Source: Candidatus Thorarchaeota archaeon (lineage in GTDB: Archaea > Asgardarchaeota > Thorarchaeia > Thorarchaeales > Thorarchaeaceae). From it: a stretch of DNA of 64,000 bases. The notes beneath the pieces were generated by a model. The model ran no database searches. It was not told the origin of the DNA and saw only the letters and a program-made list of their open reading frames with translations. The stretch's first letter is position 1, and every line of letters begins with the position of its first letter. The stretch spans positions 12,326 to 76,325 of the forward strand of contig SDNP01000013.1 in assembly GCA_004524445.1 (NCBI GenBank). Reading direction: 5' to 3'. The position numbers were made by a program, and so were the translations under genes. This document shows positions 21,793 to 48,898 of the stretch, one piece after another.

Positions 21793-22887
21793 ATGATTAA
21801 TCGTAAGAGAATTCCTAAACTACTCGCTGTGGCAATCACTCTAATGATATTCATATCCGGAGTCCAGTGTTCAGCAAAGGCTCAAGACACCGAGCTAGAC
21901 CCCATTGTAGTGATGTACGAAGCCAGCCATGCTCCACAATTTTCTGCAGATAATGCTGAAGACGGGCTCAAATTAATGTTGGATATGGTCAACGAGTCAA
22001 CACGCTACCTTCTGCGGGTTAATCATGAACCCCTCAATGATACAATTCTTGAGGATGTTGATATTCTAATAATAGCGGAGCCCGATGAGAGTGCTGAGTT
22101 TGAACATGAAGAAATTCTTGCCATTGATGAGCTCTTAACTAATGGCAGTTCCCTTTTTATTTTAGGTGACCCCAGCATCGACCAAAACTCGGCATACTGG
22201 AGCAATCAGCAATTTAGAGATTTAGGTGAAAATGTTGCCATCAATACATTTCTAGATCAGATGAACATTACAACAGTAAGATTTGGTCTTAATGAATCAG
22301 CAACTGGTCGAATTTTTGGTGACACCATGTTTGATTACGAGCATTCGTTGAATTCATCGTATCCTTCAATTATTCAATTCGATTCCACTACGTGGGATAC
22401 AAGCCACCCGATTTTCAAGGATATTAATACAGTAATATCCATGACGGCAACTCTCAAACCTATTGACCTGGTGAGTGGAATTGCCCATGGGTATGAGACC
22501 TCTTTTGCACAATACCGGCGTGGGCCAAACACATTCGGGAACCTTACGTTTCCCAATATGACTTTGGAAGAATTTCAAGAAGCTCCGAAATCATATTCCG
22601 CCATAAACGGGACATTCCCTCCATGGCTCTCTGCCTTTCGATATGGCAATAGCAGAATTGTTGTGGGAGGCTCCGCATTGATGTTTACGGGACGTAATCT
22701 CGACTTGCCGGAGAGTGAAGAAAAGTGGTTCTATCAGGGAGATAATTCTAGGTTATTCATGAACATTATGAGCTGGCTTTCATATGACTTTGTCAACCCT
22801 GAAAGTCCAATTCTTCCTATGTTGATTATCTCATCAGTAATCTTATTGATTGGGGTAGCATACTACCTCTTCAAGAAACTGAGATAG
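21793..22887 (+). CDS. Type I membrane glycoprotein with GIFT (GldG/IFT52/Wbp1-like) domain
   Basis: Signal peptide, GNSRIVVGGSALMF, DNSRLFMNIMSWL, C-terminal TM, many N-X-S/T sequons. Confidence 0.7.
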   Translation: MINRKRIPKLLAVAITLMIFISGVQCSAKAQDTELDPIVVMYEASHAPQFSADNAEDGLKLMLDMVNESTRYLLRVNHEPLNDTILEDVDILIIAEPDESAEFEHEEILAIDELLTNGSSLFILGDPSIDQNSAYWSNQQFRDLGENVAINTFLDQMNITTVRFGLNESATGRIFGDTMFDYEHSLNSSYPSIIQFDSTTWDTSHPIFKDINTVISMTATLKPIDLVSGIAHGYETSFAQYRRGPNTFGNLTFPNMTLEEFQEAPKSYSAINGTFPPWLSAFRYGNSRIVVGGSALMFTGRNLDLPESEEKWFYQGDNSRLFMNIMSWLSYDFVNPESPILPMLIISSVILLIGVAYYLFKKLR

Positions 22888-22891
22888 ATAC

Positions 22892-23512
22892 TCACCATTT
22901 GGGCAGTTTGAAATCCTGTTCTTGCAGGCTCTCTTGAATTGCTCGTTTCAGCTCTCCCACTCCTTCCTTTTTGCGAGCTGACATTGCTACAATATGTGGC
23001 ATTTGCGTTGGAACTGCCTCATGCAACTTGTGGTACAAGAACGCAATTTCTTCATCTCGTCGTCTATGACTCACTTTGTCAATCTTGTTTGCGGCCACAA
23101 TTACCTTCGGTGATATCTCCGAGAGAAAAGAATAGAATTCTATGTCTATCGGTATTTCTCCTCTCTCTTCCCAACGCTCTACCAGTTCTCTGAAAATTGA
23201 AATATCTATAATCAATACGCACAGAGCAATTTGGTCGCTTCGCTTTTCAAGGTTTCTTACAATCCGGGTCTTGGTGTGATCAATGCGTCTCCTACTTTGG
23301 CCCGACATATGCCCAAAACCTGGAATATCGATAAAAAGCACATTACCCAAGTCTATGATTTGCTCGGTTCGAGTACTACCAGGTTTTTTTCCGACTCGAA
23401 TCCGAAGTCCTGTTAAAGCCCTAATTACGCTGCTTTTCCCAACGTTACTTCGGCCTGCAAAAATGACAAGCGGTTTTCCGGATTCAATCCCAGAAGGGTC
23501 GTGTACGCTCAT
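22892..23512 (-). CDS. engB: GTP-binding protein EngB
   Basis: FAGRSNVGKSS, KPGST, DIPGFG, NKID. Confidence 0.92.
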   Translation of the reverse strand: MSVHDPSGIESGKPLVIFAGRSNVGKSSVIRALTGLRIRVGKKPGSTRTEQIIDLGNVLFIDIPGFGHMSGQSRRRIDHTKTRIVRNLEKRSDQIALCVLIIDISIFRELVERWEERGEIPIDIEFYSFLSEISPKVIVAANKIDKVSHRRRDEEIAFLYHKLHEAVPTQMPHIVAMSARKKEGVGELKRAIQESLQEQDFKLPKW

Positions 23513-26324
23513 ATTCTTGCTCCGCCTTTGCTATCGAATGCAACAGTGTAAGCCTATCGGTTTGCCCCGGTCTTAGAACTCTTGATGCAGTTGTCGGACC
23601 AATCCCTCTTCCTGCCAATGCCAATAACGCCTTTTTTCCATATTGTGCAACAAGACTCGCGGTAAGTGATGCATTTTCATATCTCTTTTTCTCCTCACCT
23701 GATAACATTTCTCCAGCCTTGACTTTTCGCAATATTGTAGGCAAATTTTTGACCCTCTCTCTGACGGCAGCAATCATCCTTGAATTACAGATTGGACAGG
23801 TGATCTCATCATCAAGCGTAGATATAGTCCGTACAGAATTCCAGTCATTCTTCGCCATGCAGATCAGTCTAAATTTTCTAGACAATAATCGCTCTTCCAA
23901 GAAACGTAAGACCTCATCTTCATCACTTATCTCCCCCATAACCTCAAAGCGTGTCTTCTCCTCAATGATGAGTCGGGCAAGCAAGGAGGGTTGTTTCCGT
24001 TTAGAAATTACCGTTTGAATCTCTCCCGTGTCGATTTTTTCGAAAACCTCGAGCATACGATTCTCATCAAGCTTCTCTCTAAGTATTTCCTTCATGGCTT
24101 CATCGAAGACTGGTGACGACTCAAAGACATCGATTAGCCGTCTAGATGGTATTTCCTTAAATTTGGCAGTCCTTCGAATAATTCCCATTCTTCTTCCTAC
24201 ATGAATGAAACGTGACGCAAATGTTTGTGTCTGCCTTACTGCTAATCTCAAAATGGTGGAAATTTGGGCACCTTGATAGCTACTAAAGACATCTAGTAAA
24301 TACTGGGCATCAATTCCGCCGCTGGCGGTGAGAAGGATTCTATAGGGGTCAGTTTCCACAGCCACCTCCTTTCCCAACCTAGTTGTGAGTAATGCCGCTA
24401 GAACAACTCCAATTGTGTCATTTGTTTTCGTTCCGAAAGGGGCGTGAAATACAATCCCGTCCGGGATAGTTTCGATTATGAGGTGAGTTTCTGTAGGTAT
24501 CGAACCTAGTTGTTCCTTCGCAGTTGTGACACTCTCAACGAGATAATTTGATGACGTTTCATTCATCATATAATTTGTTTCCAACCAACTTGATGCTTCA
24601 TATGATAAATCCCCAAGACGTTCCCAAACATCGGCCACTTCAGTTGCCACCTCAAATGGAACCGGTATCATTTCCCCTATCCATCTTGGTGCCTCAACCT
24701 GAGTGTCAGTCACAGGAGCACAAAGAACCTCTTCACGTTCTTCATCAATTGATACAACCCGCCAGGGCCTTCCTCTGATAACGAATATAAATCCGGTTTC
24801 TACACTCTCAGTGACAAAATCTTCATCAAGAACTCCTATTCCTGTTCTCGTGGCAATGTCTACAGCTCTGACTTGTTGCACATCGGGTATTGTACTCAGA
24901 TGTTCATAGTAGTAGGGCAACGTACCACCATATCGCTTGATTAGGTCGTCTTCTATGAGAAGAAATCGACGTCTAACCATGAAGTCCAACAATCTGTCGA
25001 GTTCTTTTTCATTAACCTCTCTGAAAGGATATGCGCCTTTTATAATCCTCAGCAATTCACTCTTGCGGATTTCTCCTGTATCCAGTAACACTCCGCTTAC
25101 TTGCTGACAAAGGACATCCCAGGTCTTCTGGGGAATATCAGCGGGTTCTACCTTGTTGATTCGAGCTCGTTTCAGTATTACGGCAGACTCCGTGATATCA
25201 TCCACATTCATTGTAGAAATGATTATACCTTTGGAAACTCTCCCGACCCGATGTCCCGATCTACCGATTCGTTGAACCGCTCTAGATACTTCTCTGGGTG
25301 AAGAATACTGGATTACTAAATCCGCCAACCCAATATCTATTCCCAACTCAAGACTAGATGTCGCAATAATTGCCTTTGACACGCCTCTTTTCAGCCTATC
25401 TTCGGCACTCAATCTCACTTCTTTTGAGAGTGATCCATGATGCACATCAAACTCAAACGGTGGTGAAATCGTACGCATCTTTGCTCCCAAAACCTCTGCA
25501 AAGGAACGCGTGTTTGTAAAAACAATCGTGGTCTGGTGGCTTTCAATAAGATCCTTGATTCTTTCTAGCCTAGCGGCAGAATGTGGTGGATAGGAAATTT
25601 GCCTACCTAGTTCTATATGTTGGCTGTTAGGCTGAGGCATTTCCACCTTGAGATGTATTTGCCTCTCTTGATATCCCGCCCATAATGTATGGATTTTTTT
25701 CCCACTGCCTCTAAGAAGGAATGCTATTTCATTGGCATTTCCCACTGTAGCGGATAGTCCAACTCTTTGAATCTTATTGCCAATCCAATGGACTAATCGT
25801 TCCAATGCAAGTGATAGTTGGGTTCCTCGCTTGCTTCCTGCCAACTCATGTATTTCATCAACAATTACTGCCATAACTGAGCGAAGATGATATTTCATCC
25901 GTTTTCCAGGTAGAATTGCCTGAAGCGTTTCTGGTGTTGTGATGAGTAAATTTGGAGGCGTTATTGCCTGCTTGCGTCGGAAATACTGAGTAGTGTCTCC
26001 ATGGCGTACGGCAACAGTGATTCCCAAGTGCTCACAGAGGTCTTCTATCCTGCGAAAGACATCCCGATTTAATGCGCGCAGCGGCGTAATATAGAGTATG
26101 TATATACCAAATAACTCATCATGTAACTTTCTTTCGTAAAGGTTACTCAGAAGTGGCAATATTGATGCCTCTGTCTTTCCACTTCCCGTGGGCGCAAGGA
26201 GCAGTGCAGAACCTCCACTACGAATCCTGGGAATCGCCTTCTCTTGAATCTCTGTTGGTTTAGTAATGCCTTCTCTAGTGAGATATTCAACTATGTCCGC
26301 ATGAAGCGACTCGAATCCATTCAT
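23484..26324 (-). CDS. lhr: Lhr-family SF2 helicase with C-terminal Zn finger
   Basis: APTGSGKT, YITPLRALNRD, DEIH, HHGSLS, SLELGID, QRIGRSGH. Confidence 0.93.
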   Translation of the reverse strand: MNGFESLHADIVEYLTREGITKPTEIQEKAIPRIRSGGSALLLAPTGSGKTEASILPLLSNLYERKLHDELFGIYILYITPLRALNRDVFRRIEDLCEHLGITVAVRHGDTTQYFRRKQAITPPNLLITTPETLQAILPGKRMKYHLRSVMAVIVDEIHELAGSKRGTQLSLALERLVHWIGNKIQRVGLSATVGNANEIAFLLRGSGKKIHTLWAGYQERQIHLKVEMPQPNSQHIELGRQISYPPHSAARLERIKDLIESHQTTIVFTNTRSFAEVLGAKMRTISPPFEFDVHHGSLSKEVRLSAEDRLKRGVSKAIIATSSLELGIDIGLADLVIQYSSPREVSRAVQRIGRSGHRVGRVSKGIIISTMNVDDITESAVILKRARINKVEPADIPQKTWDVLCQQVSGVLLDTGEIRKSELLRIIKGAYPFREVNEKELDRLLDFMVRRRFLLIEDDLIKRYGGTLPYYYEHLSTIPDVQQVRAVDIATRTGIGVLDEDFVTESVETGFIFVIRGRPWRVVSIDEEREEVLCAPVTDTQVEAPRWIGEMIPVPFEVATEVADVWERLGDLSYEASSWLETNYMMNETSSNYLVESVTTAKEQLGSIPTETHLIIETIPDGIVFHAPFGTKTNDTIGVVLAALLTTRLGKEVAVETDPYRILLTASGGIDAQYLLDVFSSYQGAQISTILRLAVRQTQTFASRFIHVGRRMGIIRRTAKFKEIPSRRLIDVFESSPVFDEAMKEILREKLDENRMLEVFEKIDTGEIQTVISKRKQPSLLARLIIEEKTRFEVMGEISDEDEVLRFLEERLLSRKFRLICMAKNDWNSVRTISTLDDEITCPICNSRMIAAVRERVKNLPTILRKVKAGEMLSGEEKKRYENASLTASLVAQYGKKALLALAGRGIGPTTASRVLRPGQTDRLTLLHSIAKAEQEYERTRPFWD

Positions 26325-26578
26325 TTTTTCTTCTGTCCAGCGACGAGATGTCTTCTTTCATTGAGCAAAATATTGATATCAGTTCGGATGGTAGCATCAG
26401 CATCTTTTGAAATTTTACTCAACTCACTACGGATTCGTCAATGGGCCGTCAATCGATTTTCAGCTTATTTACTATGATTTTTACTTGATGAAGATTAGAA
26501 ATATGAGATACTATGTTCTCGTAGGCTAATTGGAGTAATTCATTAGTTTTGATGGGTTCTCCATCCTTTTCAACTACT

Positions 26579-26698
26579 CTATTCTTCCCCGCGTTCTTCT
26601 CCATATACAGAATATGCAAGGATTATGACCAAGGCTATGATGCCCAGTGCGTTCAATAGGATAAAGAGCACCGATTCGATGAAGGTTGTTGATTGCAT
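26579..26698 (-). CDS. 39-aa single-TM micropeptide, OST4-like (absent from the ORF track)
   Basis: Translates as MQSTTFIESVLFILLNALGIIALVIILAYSVYGEERGEE; TTATAA ~30 nt upstream. Confidence 0.55.
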   Translation of the reverse strand: MQSTTFIESVLFILLNALGIIALVIILAYSVYGEERGEE

Positions 26699-26765
26699 GG
26701 GAATCGCTTCTGCACATTTGGGCTGGTCTTATAATCATTGCTGAAGAGATGGACTTGTACTAGTC

Positions 26766-27020
26766 CTATGCAGTGCCCGCTTGCCGGGCCTCATAAAATC
26801 TATCAATAAATGAACCGTATATATCAACAGGTTCAGTCAGCTCGTTGACTTCGTCGATTGTCATCTCTAGTCCGCAAGATCCGCACTTGACAGTTGCCAT
26901 CACTTCTTTACGATACAAGTCAATTTTGATGGCAGTATTTCCGCATGAAGGACAAGGATAAACATCAGGAATTCTCTTCTGCGGCCTTCTTCTGGATTTT
27001 TGTCTTCGTCTTCTTCCCAC
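26766..27020 (-). CDS. elf1: Transcription elongation factor Elf1
   Basis: MGRRRR...CPSC...CGSC...EPVDIYGSFID. Confidence 0.9.
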   Translation of the reverse strand: MGRRRRQKSRRRPQKRIPDVYPCPSCGNTAIKIDLYRKEVMATVKCGSCGLEMTIDEVNELTEPVDIYGSFIDRFYEARQAGTA

Positions 27021-27174
27021 TGTTTGTCACCAAACTTGCCTATTTCACACTTAGAGCTCAAGTCTAGGTAGAAACAGAGCAGTTGGACCCTCGAGGGTGT
27101 TGATTTAAAGATTATGATACCTATTTAGCTCAAAGAGCAAAGCTTTCATATTAGAGTCCTATGCCGATTGCTTA

Positions 27175-42179: not shown

Positions 42180-42611
42180 ATGAAGCTATGGTGGCCAAGA
42201 AGAATCATAAGACCTCGAGTCAGACTCAAGAGACCGAGATTTACCACTCCAACTCGACCTCCAGATGTGGTTCTATTTGGAGTCCTGTTTATCGTCGTAC
42301 TATTCATCCTTGGCGGTAATATCTATACCTTAGTTAGGTCCCCGCCAGCTATTGCTGGTGGTTCGGGTGGTTCTCCAATCCTGATTTCTCCTGGCATCGA
42401 TTCACAATTAGGTTTGGAAGGTATTGTTGCCTCCGTCGTCATTCTAATGGGAACGATAGGATTGGGACTGATCTACTACGCTTCAAAATATGTATTTCAA
42501 CCAGGTTATGCCAACCGTCTTCTCTTGCTTGGCATGTTACTCAGTGGACTTTCTTTCCTCATATTTGGCTATCTCTTTGGGTACAAATTGGGTGCCTTTT
42601 CGCAAGGCTAA
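42180..42611 (+). CDS. Oligosaccharyltransferase subunit OSTC/DC2-like (OST3/OST6-family TM domain)
   Basis: PRVRLKRP, FILGGNIY...PPAI, QLGLEGIVAS, MGTIG, NRLLLLG, KL; three TMs. Confidence 0.8.
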   Translation: MKLWWPRRIIRPRVRLKRPRFTTPTRPPDVVLFGVLFIVVLFILGGNIYTLVRSPPAIAGGSGGSPILISPGIDSQLGLEGIVASVVILMGTIGLGLIYYASKYVFQPGYANRLLLLGMLLSGLSFLIFGYLFGYKLGAFSQG

Positions 42612-45912: not shown

Positions 45913-46138
45913 AATAATACATCTGATCAATGCTTGGGACAATCGTCTGTAAAGAATACCACGGTTGTCCGAAGCTAACCTATTTTTTCTGGTCCGACCT
46001 AAAACAACCAAATGCTATTTGGCAGTTCATTTCGTCCCTCTTTTCTGGTTGGTACAGAAATGAATCTATCCGAAACCCTTTTAGCGAATACGAGATTGCT
46101 CCGCTTAGCTTCGAGTCGGAATGGAGAGAGCACACCGA

Positions 46139-48898
46139 ATGTCCAAATTCAATAGATTCAAACGGTCCGCGGGTCGTTTCCTGAAAAGGGTCTTCCGAAG
46201 GCCAAAGGCAGAAATTAGTCGTGGGTCCGTAATGATAATGGTGGCATTAGCAATCATTTTCATATCTGCACTGGCTCTAAGGCTGGAACCATTAATCAAT
46301 GCTCAGCCTGTTGTAAGAGCTTTTGACCCCTGGTTCCAGCTGCGAGTGACAGAATATGTGGCGGAAAATGGGTATGCTGCATATTTCTCTTGGTATGATT
46401 ATACAACATGGGTGCCTTTTGGACGTGATATGACACAAACTAGCTATGTCGGTGTGCCATTTACCACTGCTTTCTTCTATTGGGTCGTAAATCTATTCGG
46501 AATCGAAGTATCCGTAACCTATGTTGCAATAGTTCTCCCTGCATTCATGGGCGCACTGACCACTATTGTTGCATTCTTCTTCGGACGAGAACTATACAAC
46601 AATACTGTTGGATTGTTGAATGCCCTATTCATGGCTTTCATGCCAGCATTTATCCAGAGAACAATAGTTGGATTCTTTGACAATGAGAGCATAGGAATCT
46701 TTGCGATTGTACTTACCATGTACCTATTCATTCGTAGTATTCGACGTGGTTCAAGCATTTCGGGAGTCGCTGCAGGTTTGTCCCTAGGGTATCTACTTGC
46801 GTCATGGGGTGCTGCTGATTTCATGTTGGGCCTTTTTGCTCTTTATGGCCTTATTATGCTCATGATAGGGCGATACAGCAAACGATTGCTGAGCTCTTAT
46901 CTATTGACATTGGCTCTAGGTATGTTCATTGGATGTCTTGTGCCGCGAAATGGTTTCGAGAGCCTTACGTCGTTTACATACCTTGCCCCGATGGGTGTAG
47001 GAATTCTTCTTGCGGGGTATGAAGTCTGGCTGAGAATAGGTTCACTTAGGGACGCCACTGCGACAAGACTTGCACCTCACTTGAAGTCAATTCTGGTTGG
47101 AATTATCGCCCCAGTCGCAGGAATGATCGCTTATGTGATTTACTCGAGTGGATTAGACCTCGCGATTGTTACCACAGCATCGAATCCCTTTACAGTTATT
47201 GGAAATAAATTCCTTAGTGTAATTAATCCATTTTACCGTCTTGATCAACGGATATTTGCATCTGTGGCTGAGCACTTACCAAGCCCATGGGGAAGTTTCT
47301 ATCAGACATTGTTGATACTAATCTTTTTCCTGCCTCTAGGAATGTACTTCTTATTCCGAAGAGGTCGAGATGAGGACTATTTGATTCTCCTCTTTGGCAT
47401 CACAGCTGTATACTTTGCAGGAAGCATGATTCGACTTAGTTTGATTCTTGCGCCTGCAGCTGCAATTCTTTCAGGTATAGCAGTTAACGGAATATTGAGC
47501 CCATTCGCCAAGGTTGTAACTCAGGACTCGGTCTTTGAGCGAAGAAGATTCAGAATGAGTTCATCTCTGACATCCGAGCATGCCATTGCCGCATTCGGAT
47601 TTGTTGGTCTGCTTCTATCTGTAAATCTGATTCTTGGCGTTTCTTATGTGACGAACTCGGTGAGCAATCCCGAATTTGCGCCGTCTCAGATCACATCCGA
47701 CCGCCAGTTTGCTGATTGGCAGACGTCGATGAACTATATCAGGAACGTTCTACCAGATGATGCAGTTATTGCTAGTTGGTGGGATTACGGCTACTGGATA
47801 AATGGGGCTGGTGACGGACAAACGATTGTTGACAATGCCACTTGGAATCGTACGCAAATTGCCTTAATGGGTTACGCACTGATGGCGCTCAATTTAACAG
47901 AGTCACTAAAGACGTTCAAGCTCTGGAATGCCTCACATGTATTGGTCTATTGGGGTCATACCAGTTCCGGTGTTGGCGGTGATGAAGGTAAATGGCCCTG
48001 GATGGTAAGAATTGCGGAGGACCGCTTTGGCAGCTCAGTCATCGATGATGCAACTTATCTTGGTGACAATCCTGCTACCGACCAGGAGGAGTCAGAATAC
48101 ACCCAGGACGCATTCTTCCAGTCCACTATATACAAGCTTATGATGTACAACGAGCCAACATCATTAGAATCCGGGCAACAGAGGGGACTAACTAATGAGC
48201 GCTTGGGCTGGGATAGGCAGTACATCGAAAATCCAGATAAGCGCTGGCTTAATAATATTCCACAGACCCTTCACGGTGCCTTCAAAGAAGCCTTCATCAG
48301 CTATGCATATGGCTTTGTCAAGATTTACGAGATTGACTATACAATGCTTGAGCAGTACAACAACCGTACCAGTTCAGACTGGCGGCTGAGACAAGACTCA
48401 CTATCTCAAGTATCAATTGATGGCAGCCTTTCCCCGCAAGAGGAGGACTTTCAGAGTTTCAATACGGTATTTGGTGGTGGCTACGACGCTACTGTCTACA
48501 CACGGGCGAACTCAACCCATGTCTATTATGGGATACAGATGGATAACTACACTCTTGGAGAAGACGCCTTCGGACTGCAGATATCTCCAATCGATACTAC
48601 TTCAGTATCAGACATTCGAGTTGTTAACTACCAAGGGCAGGAGTATTTCGATGGACATATCGACTATTATGGCGACTGGGTGGCTGATGCCCAAAGTGCA
48701 AACGAATCTGAGGCGGCAACTGGTGAAAATGTGATAGAGTTCCTGCTACCGTTGGAATCCGATGATCCAGATGATATACATCTTGCCCCTGGAAATAAGT
48801 ACCAAATACGCTTCCTATTCTGGAACAATATGCAAACTGGTGAACCAACACTCAATAGTGACTGGACGGTCTTCTGGGTTCCTGTAGAGCTACATTAG
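46139..48898 (+). CDS. aglB: Oligosaccharyltransferase catalytic subunit AglB/STT3 with C-terminal extension
   Basis: FDPWF, FDNE, SVAEH, WWDYG, DNATWN, GKWPWMVRIA; start 46121 or 46139. Confidence 0.95.
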   Translation: MSKFNRFKRSAGRFLKRVFRRPKAEISRGSVMIMVALAIIFISALALRLEPLINAQPVVRAFDPWFQLRVTEYVAENGYAAYFSWYDYTTWVPFGRDMTQTSYVGVPFTTAFFYWVVNLFGIEVSVTYVAIVLPAFMGALTTIVAFFFGRELYNNTVGLLNALFMAFMPAFIQRTIVGFFDNESIGIFAIVLTMYLFIRSIRRGSSISGVAAGLSLGYLLASWGAADFMLGLFALYGLIMLMIGRYSKRLLSSYLLTLALGMFIGCLVPRNGFESLTSFTYLAPMGVGILLAGYEVWLRIGSLRDATATRLAPHLKSILVGIIAPVAGMIAYVIYSSGLDLAIVTTASNPFTVIGNKFLSVINPFYRLDQRIFASVAEHLPSPWGSFYQTLLILIFFLPLGMYFLFRRGRDEDYLILLFGITAVYFAGSMIRLSLILAPAAAILSGIAVNGILSPFAKVVTQDSVFERRRFRMSSSLTSEHAIAAFGFVGLLLSVNLILGVSYVTNSVSNPEFAPSQITSDRQFADWQTSMNYIRNVLPDDAVIASWWDYGYWINGAGDGQTIVDNATWNRTQIALMGYALMALNLTESLKTFKLWNASHVLVYWGHTSSGVGGDEGKWPWMVRIAEDRFGSSVIDDATYLGDNPATDQEESEYTQDAFFQSTIYKLMMYNEPTSLESGQQRGLTNERLGWDRQYIENPDKRWLNNIPQTLHGAFKEAFISYAYGFVKIYEIDYTMLEQYNNRTSSDWRLRQDSLSQVSIDGSLSPQEEDFQSFNTVFGGGYDATVYTRANSTHVYYGIQMDNYTLGEDAFGLQISPIDTTSVSDIRVVNYQGQEYFDGHIDYYGDWVADAQSANESEAATGENVIEFLLPLESDDPDDIHLAPGNKYQIRFLFWNNMQTGEPTLNSDWTVFWVPVELH

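Follow-up and report, generated by a model that had tools for sequence, protein, structure and literature searches.

Does a 39-amino-acid open reading frame beside elf1 in a Candidatus Thorarchaeota archaeon encode a counterpart of OST4, which is the smallest of the subunits that make up the eukaryotic oligosaccharyltransferase (OST)? The window, by which we mean the whole stretch of 64,000 nucleotides analysed from contig SDNP01000013.1, had been given a sequence-only reading that proposed such a resemblance. The minus-strand ORF that it quoted is present exactly as given, with a TTATAA sequence 31 to 36 nucleotides before its ATG, and the STT3 and DC2-like proteins that it placed in the same window were both found. 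It had also called the ORF unannotated, which holds for the ORF track that was used; NCBI and JGI Thorarchaeota records do call relatives of the product, under the name "hypothetical protein". The relevant features are the following.

26579..26698 (stop codon included), minus strand: coding sequence of a 39-aa single-pass membrane microprotein, with an ATG start (MQSTTFIES...GEERGEE)
26701-26705, minus strand: conserved GATTC, at -7 to -3 from the ATG
26728..26742, minus strand: conserved promoter box AGCAATGATTATAAG (BRE + TATA), between -44 and -30 relative to the ATG, with TTATAA at 26729-26734
26766..27020, minus strand: elf1, encoding a Zn-ribbon Elf1 protein (PF05129, E 1e-18), the upstream neighbour of the microprotein gene
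26321..26619, minus strand: small gene of the MJ1579/PF2048.1 family, in two frames (26449..26619 and 26321..26422), directly 3' of the microprotein gene
23484..26324, minus strand: Lhr-type helicase (DEAD, Helicase_C, WH_Lhr and DEAD_assoc domains)
46121..48898, plus strand: AglB/STT3 (PF02516, E 2.7e-46), the predicted partner of the microprotein
42180..42611, plus strand: Ost3/Ost6-family protein of 143 aa, TM-only, with DC2-like architecture (PF04756, 36.6 bits, cut-off 27)

The microprotein ORF is a real, conserved gene under selection. A six-frame search with the single sequence was run on 24 genomes from its GTDB family and found the frame open, free of stops, in all 24. A family profile built from 20 members (alignment A1), on which the window peptide scores 73 bits, recovers it in 43/43 genomes of that family (f1) at E <= 1.2e-10, with values ranging from 1e-10 to 2e-20. 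The conservation in related genomes on which the sequence-only reading had made its proposal depend is therefore evident, and elf1 lies upstream in 20/20 of the family loci examined. Public protein sets hold ~180 called relatives of 36-48 aa, some of them from Candidatus Thorarchaeota, all named "hypothetical protein" and none (0) with a Pfam domain. On the gap-free 24-codon core of the alignment, comparison of the window with its congener gives pS 0.30 and pN 0.019, indicating purifying selection, and the means over 190 pairs are pS 0.77 and pN 0.30. Variability per codon position follows the order 3>1>2.

Sequences 5' to the ORF are conserved as well. A 15-nt box, AGCAAyGrTTATAAG, occupies -44 to -30 in 20/20 related loci, one of which reads TTTTAAG, and the GATTC at -7 to -3 is kept in all 20. 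The box represents a BRE/TATA promoter of archaeal type; the usual TATA-to-start distance would make the microprotein mRNA near-leaderless, with transcription probably starting around GATTC. Contigs from RNA libraries of two salt-lake studies span the ORF (26587-26737 and 26433-26691), which is weak evidence of expression because such libraries may contain DNA and the contigs give no strand, ends or level. An Rfam scan of 26200-27100 returned a single match, IS009, at 15.7 bits and thus far under its cut-off of 117.

Members of the family are 33-41 aa long, and the window protein is 39 aa. Residues ~9-32 form one hydrophobic helix, whose 19-residue hydropathy maximum in the window protein is 3.05. 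M1, Q2, L23, Y29 and G33 are invariant in the alignment, and G19 and A22 are present in 95% of members. The C-terminal tail is acidic throughout the family, its net charge ranging from -3 to -5 (EERGEE in the window peptide). The N-terminal flank is neutral to -2, and neither flank is positive.

No test says that the microprotein belongs to the Ost4 family by sequence. A Pfam hmmscan of the peptide found no family at E <= 10. When the Pfam Ost4 model (PF10215, curated cut-off 25 bits) was run in six frames on the organism's own genome, the locus was not found and only two unrelated weak places appeared. At E <= 0.05 the same model matched 0/43 genomes of the family, and in 201 Asgard genomes it produced no match at or above the cut-off. 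The profile comparison that the sequence-only reading had proposed thus yields no match, either for the peptide or for the 43 genomes. A 74-aa frame in another locus, L001, that is a weak PF10215 place was set aside as it is not a TM microprotein. Searched against the PDB, the family profile found no OST4 chain at E <= 10; its only match, TM3 of MrpC at E 0.57, was taken as chance. An ESM Atlas search for look-alikes by features reached 0.80 at best, a weak value shared with generic small-TM families, and recognition by this search was below a useful level.

The gapless match of the TM segment to human OST4, with which the proposal had begun, does not rise above chance. The human sequence given there agrees with the fragment MLGVSLFLLVVLYHYVA from the PDB search (chain 2lat_A, 37 aa). 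On the family HMM, the OST4 fragments of yeast and human reach 1.2 and 1.4 bits, respectively, about the median of TM segments: of 1105 such segments, taken from this genome's long ORFs, 37-40% do equally well. In the reverse direction, a small Ost4-like HMM gives the window peptide 1.1 bits, a value reached by 26% of the TM segments. OST4 therefore scores like ordinary TM helices; the sequence-only reading had itself warned that short hydrophobic matches can arise by chance. As this case shows, a gapless match is statistically worthless when the peptides compared are short TM segments.

Some likeness to eukaryotic OST4 and yeast Ost4p (PF10215; PDB 1RKL, 2LAT, 6EZN, 6C26, 6S7O) is nevertheless seen in overall plan. 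Both kinds of protein have one TM helix and are of similar size, 34-37 aa in OST4 and 33-41 aa here. Both have a mid-helix Gly, with a Tyr nine residues on at the cytoplasmic end. This G-x9-Y pattern is common to the window peptide and the yeast and human fragments, and in the microprotein family its G is present in 95% and its Y in 100% of members; the pattern occurs by chance in 1.5-6% of the background TM segments. The differences are also clear. Significant sequence or profile similarity is lacking, the His that follows the Tyr in OST4 is replaced by S, T, M or A, and the microprotein has an invariant M-Q start and residues L23 and G33 that have no OST4 counterpart. In the N-x-L-G motif, whose conservation the sequence-only reading had treated as decisive, the N (N16) is variable, being present in no more than 45% of the family. 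That reading had also likened both the length and the charged tail to those of OST4. The comparison stands for size; it fails for the tail, which carries -3 to -5 here and is polar or basic in OST4 (the human protein ends in NNPKKQE, as quoted in that reading). Any common descent of the microprotein with Ost4 is conjectural.

The remark that OST4 was unreported in archaea has been overtaken by Eme et al. 2023 (Nature 618:992; PMC10307638), who report homologues of both Ost4 and Ost5 from the majority of Asgard classes. Theirs is the same kind of claim, of an Ost4-type subunit alongside Ost3, Ost5 and STT3. The published Ost4 set may or may not include the acidic-tail family described here.

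A second type of microprotein, which we call Y-H, is encoded in other Asgard families (L027:1480-1593 (+) in f9, L036:1459-1587 (+) in f23, and also in L035). Like the window peptide, these proteins have a single helix with a G-x9-(Y/H) pattern. Unlike it, they have basic tails and are not found beside lhr or an MJ1579-family gene. The Y-H ORFs are 38-43 aa long (G-x9-Y/H-H/Y), and their only PDB matches are human and yeast OST4 chains (E 0.07-0.15), such that L027 and L036 serve as a positive control for the PDB profile search. These putative Y-H microproteins look more like OST4 than the window peptide does. No synteny links the two types, and loci L023-L037 have no elf1, lhr or MJ1579-family gene nearby. 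The acidic-tail and Y-H types may replace each other, because the families that yielded the Y-H type yielded no acidic-tail microprotein. No microprotein was found upstream of lhr in f22 or f23.

A possible function is suggested by structure prediction. We modelled full-length AglB (42-row alignment A3) together with the peptide (alignment A1), along with three controls. The AglB-peptide prediction has an ipSAE of 0.78, whereas the best of the three controls reached 0.00; in calibration, that score was reached by 58/80 solved complexes and by 2/110 mismatched pairs. Prediction runs share at least 92% of their contacts, and the partner pLDDT is at least 76. The predicted interface on AglB comprises residues 34-60 (TM1), 160-173, 456-467 and 492-511 (TM12/13), and residues of the peptide that make contacts are more conserved on average (0.70) than those that do not (0.53). 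Peptide numbering falls as the numbering of TM1 and TM13 rises, so the predicted orientation is N-out/C-in, the orientation of OST4. With an acidic tail and neither flank positive, the peptide sequence on its own offers no positive-inside signal for this orientation.

In yeast, Ost4 sits snugly against Stt3, between its TMH1 and TMH13, according to a review of cryo-EM structures (PMC7226087), and the predicted peptide site on AglB is this published Ost4 site. An interface at the OST4 site of STT3, which had been put forward as a check of the original proposal, is thus what the model predicts. This success may be model memory, since the STT3-OST4 complex has already been solved. It may also reflect generic docking of any hydrophobic helix, because the two 39-residue decoys may not be membrane helices.

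The tails of the two proteins may offer a further point of contact. Peptide residues E34/E35 lie near AglB R34/G35 in the predicted complex, and R34 and G35 are both invariant in 42 relatives. The AglB N-tail (window 46121-46240, plus strand) has 12 K/R in ~32 residues before TM1. The charge of this tail is +3 to +10 in peptide-bearing families versus -3 to +6 in others, which is a hint only, the survey being crude: start codons are unknown, 10/28 loci have no frame, and kin are not independent.

Other OST genes of this organism were sought in its assembly. AglB is the single STT3 gene found, and an 82-aa frame matches Ost5 (PF05251) at 27.6 bits, barely over the curated cut-off of 27.4 (G000:C20:18493-18672, minus strand). 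A multi-subunit OST is therefore plausible. A search of the genome with PF04597 (Ribophorin I) gave no matches anywhere, a result that is uninformative on presence. The plus-strand region 21793-22887 of the window has elsewhere been called Wbp1/OST48-like. It matches PF09822 (ABC_transp_aux, GldG-like) at 38 bits (cut-off 34.7); its match to IFT52_GIFT is weak, and no OST48 family is among its Pfam matches.

We tentatively interpret the microprotein as an Ost4-like accessory subunit of AglB, a reading that falls somewhat short of probable and in which binding, site and orientation are as predicted by the model. The single-pass microprotein would be transcribed from its own TATA promoter, and its helix would seat N-out/C-in in the groove between TM1 and TM13 of AglB, where it would also contact TM12 and helix 160-173. 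Helix-helix contact would be made through a face of small residues comprising G19, A22, L23, I26, Y29 and G33. On the cytoplasmic side, the acidic tail of the peptide would meet AglB's highly basic N-tail (R34/G35), presumably held by electrostatics. Binding could stabilise AglB/STT3, and perhaps hold the Ost3/DC2-like protein too.

Genes surrounding the microprotein gene point in a different direction. All 20 of 20 f1 loci have the gene order elf1, microprotein, second small gene, lhr. In most relatives the second small gene is intact and encodes a helical protein of 75-88 aa (alignment A4) that resembles PF2048.1, a Pyrococcus furiosus structural-genomics protein (PDB 6E4J/6NS8; E 2.4e-13). 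Its database relatives belong to Pfam PF27357, "MJ1579", and examples of loci of this family are L005:1619-1846, L044:2106-2363 and L050:2072-2296. A PF2048.1 fragment used as a query found no related locus.

Weaker relatives of the microprotein, among them small ORFs detected by the family profile, occur in ~10 further Asgard families; their plan is a hydrophobic helix that ends in ..ILAY.., followed by three or four residues and an acidic tail. Most of these lie 5' of a small gene of the MJ1579/PF2048.1 family, and often 5' of lhr. When MJ1579-family genes were used as the anchor, the same kind of microprotein was found directly upstream in f7, f13, f18 and f19. The MJ1579-family gene is directly 3' of the microprotein gene in f1, f2, f7, f8, f13, f15, f18 and f19, and the pair is present in at least eight Asgard families. 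lhr is a downstream neighbour of the microprotein gene in f1, f8, f15 and f16. The window peptide has the plan of this acidic-tail family (M-Q ... G-x9-Y ... acidic tail), as seen in its profile match, its small open frame and its position relative to the MJ1579-family gene and lhr. Outside the Thorarchaeal family, the upstream gene encodes a SWIM-type zinc-finger protein (..FYCSCDDFY..CYHILA..) and is not elf1 (L044, L047, L048, L038, L040, L057-L059 and L067).

This arrangement raises the possibility that the microprotein is a membrane partner of another machine, most plausibly forming a module with the MJ1579/PF2048.1-family protein as its anchor or regulator, in which case the docking to AglB would be an artefact. 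We regard this explanation, the chief alternative, as unlikely, but as one to be taken seriously. It accounts for the direct succession of the two genes in eight families and for the frequent position of the pair 5' of lhr. It also fits the fact that the neighbours of the microprotein gene are informational or function-unknown genes (elf1, MJ1579-family, lhr) and never OST genes. Thermococcaceae provide a parallel, in that their MJ1579-family gene likewise follows the gene of a membrane protein, of the PrsW-protease family, with a 4-nt gap. The C-terminal helix of that PrsW-like protein was considered as a relative of the microprotein and rejected, the likeness being unconvincing.

However, the MJ1579-family gene is broken by frameshifts both here and in the congener (G001:C2:73619-73833), and at different sites (profile positions 2-41/41-73 versus 3-27/27-73), while the microprotein remains intact under strong selection. 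In the split copy of the window, independent contigs reveal no indel. The split gene is either decaying in this genus or read via frameshifting. Moreover, f16 retains the microprotein at lhr without an MJ1579-family gene, which also argues against the module.

Alternatively, the ORF might be a translated leader, or uORF, that controls the downstream small gene and lhr, with a peptide that has no membrane function. Its conserved place at the head of a same-strand array that ends in lhr in four families, and the strong conserved promoter immediately 5' to it, are both compatible with such a role. Leader peptides are usually not 22-residue hydrophobic helices, however, and selection here acts at the amino-acid level, with invariant positions on one face of the helix and a fixed acidic tail. 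Relatives also persist in f13, f19 and f22, in which they lie apart from lhr or from the small gene. We therefore consider regulation by a leader very improbable. That the ORF, which is short, belongs to no family in the databases and shares its span with ORFs of other frames, arose by chance in an intergenic spacer is refuted by its presence in 43/43 f1 genomes, its purifying selection, its conserved promoter and its ~180 called homologues, leaving this reading next to no probability.

Among these explanations, action on AglB in the manner of Ost4 is the best-supported mechanism. It rests mainly on one model prediction, and we accordingly hold it as a distinct possibility, close to an even proposition without quite being one. 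A stronger version would make the acidic-tail family the archaeal Ost4 itself, a bona fide AglB subunit in many Asgard classes that would clamp TM1/TM13 and have its acidic tail paired with the basic one of AglB. The Stt3-Ost4-Ost3/DC2 "subcomplex II" would then be pre-eukaryotic, in a form so diverged that sequence methods miss it. We find this version doubtful.

The idea of an Asgard Ost4 is already known, having been published in 2023 (Eme et al., PMC10307638). What is new is that the family is now defined by clear motifs and open to testing, that its interface and orientation have been predicted, and that it shows a conserved linkage, which was not expected, to the Lhr helicase and an MJ1579-family gene. 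If the binding to AglB is true, the oligosaccharyltransferase of Thorarchaeota and of several more Asgard classes would consist of multiple subunits. Archaea would in that case possess a counterpart of the smallest eukaryotic OST subunit, one missed by profile searches, which would bear on how the glycosylation machine of the ER was assembled.
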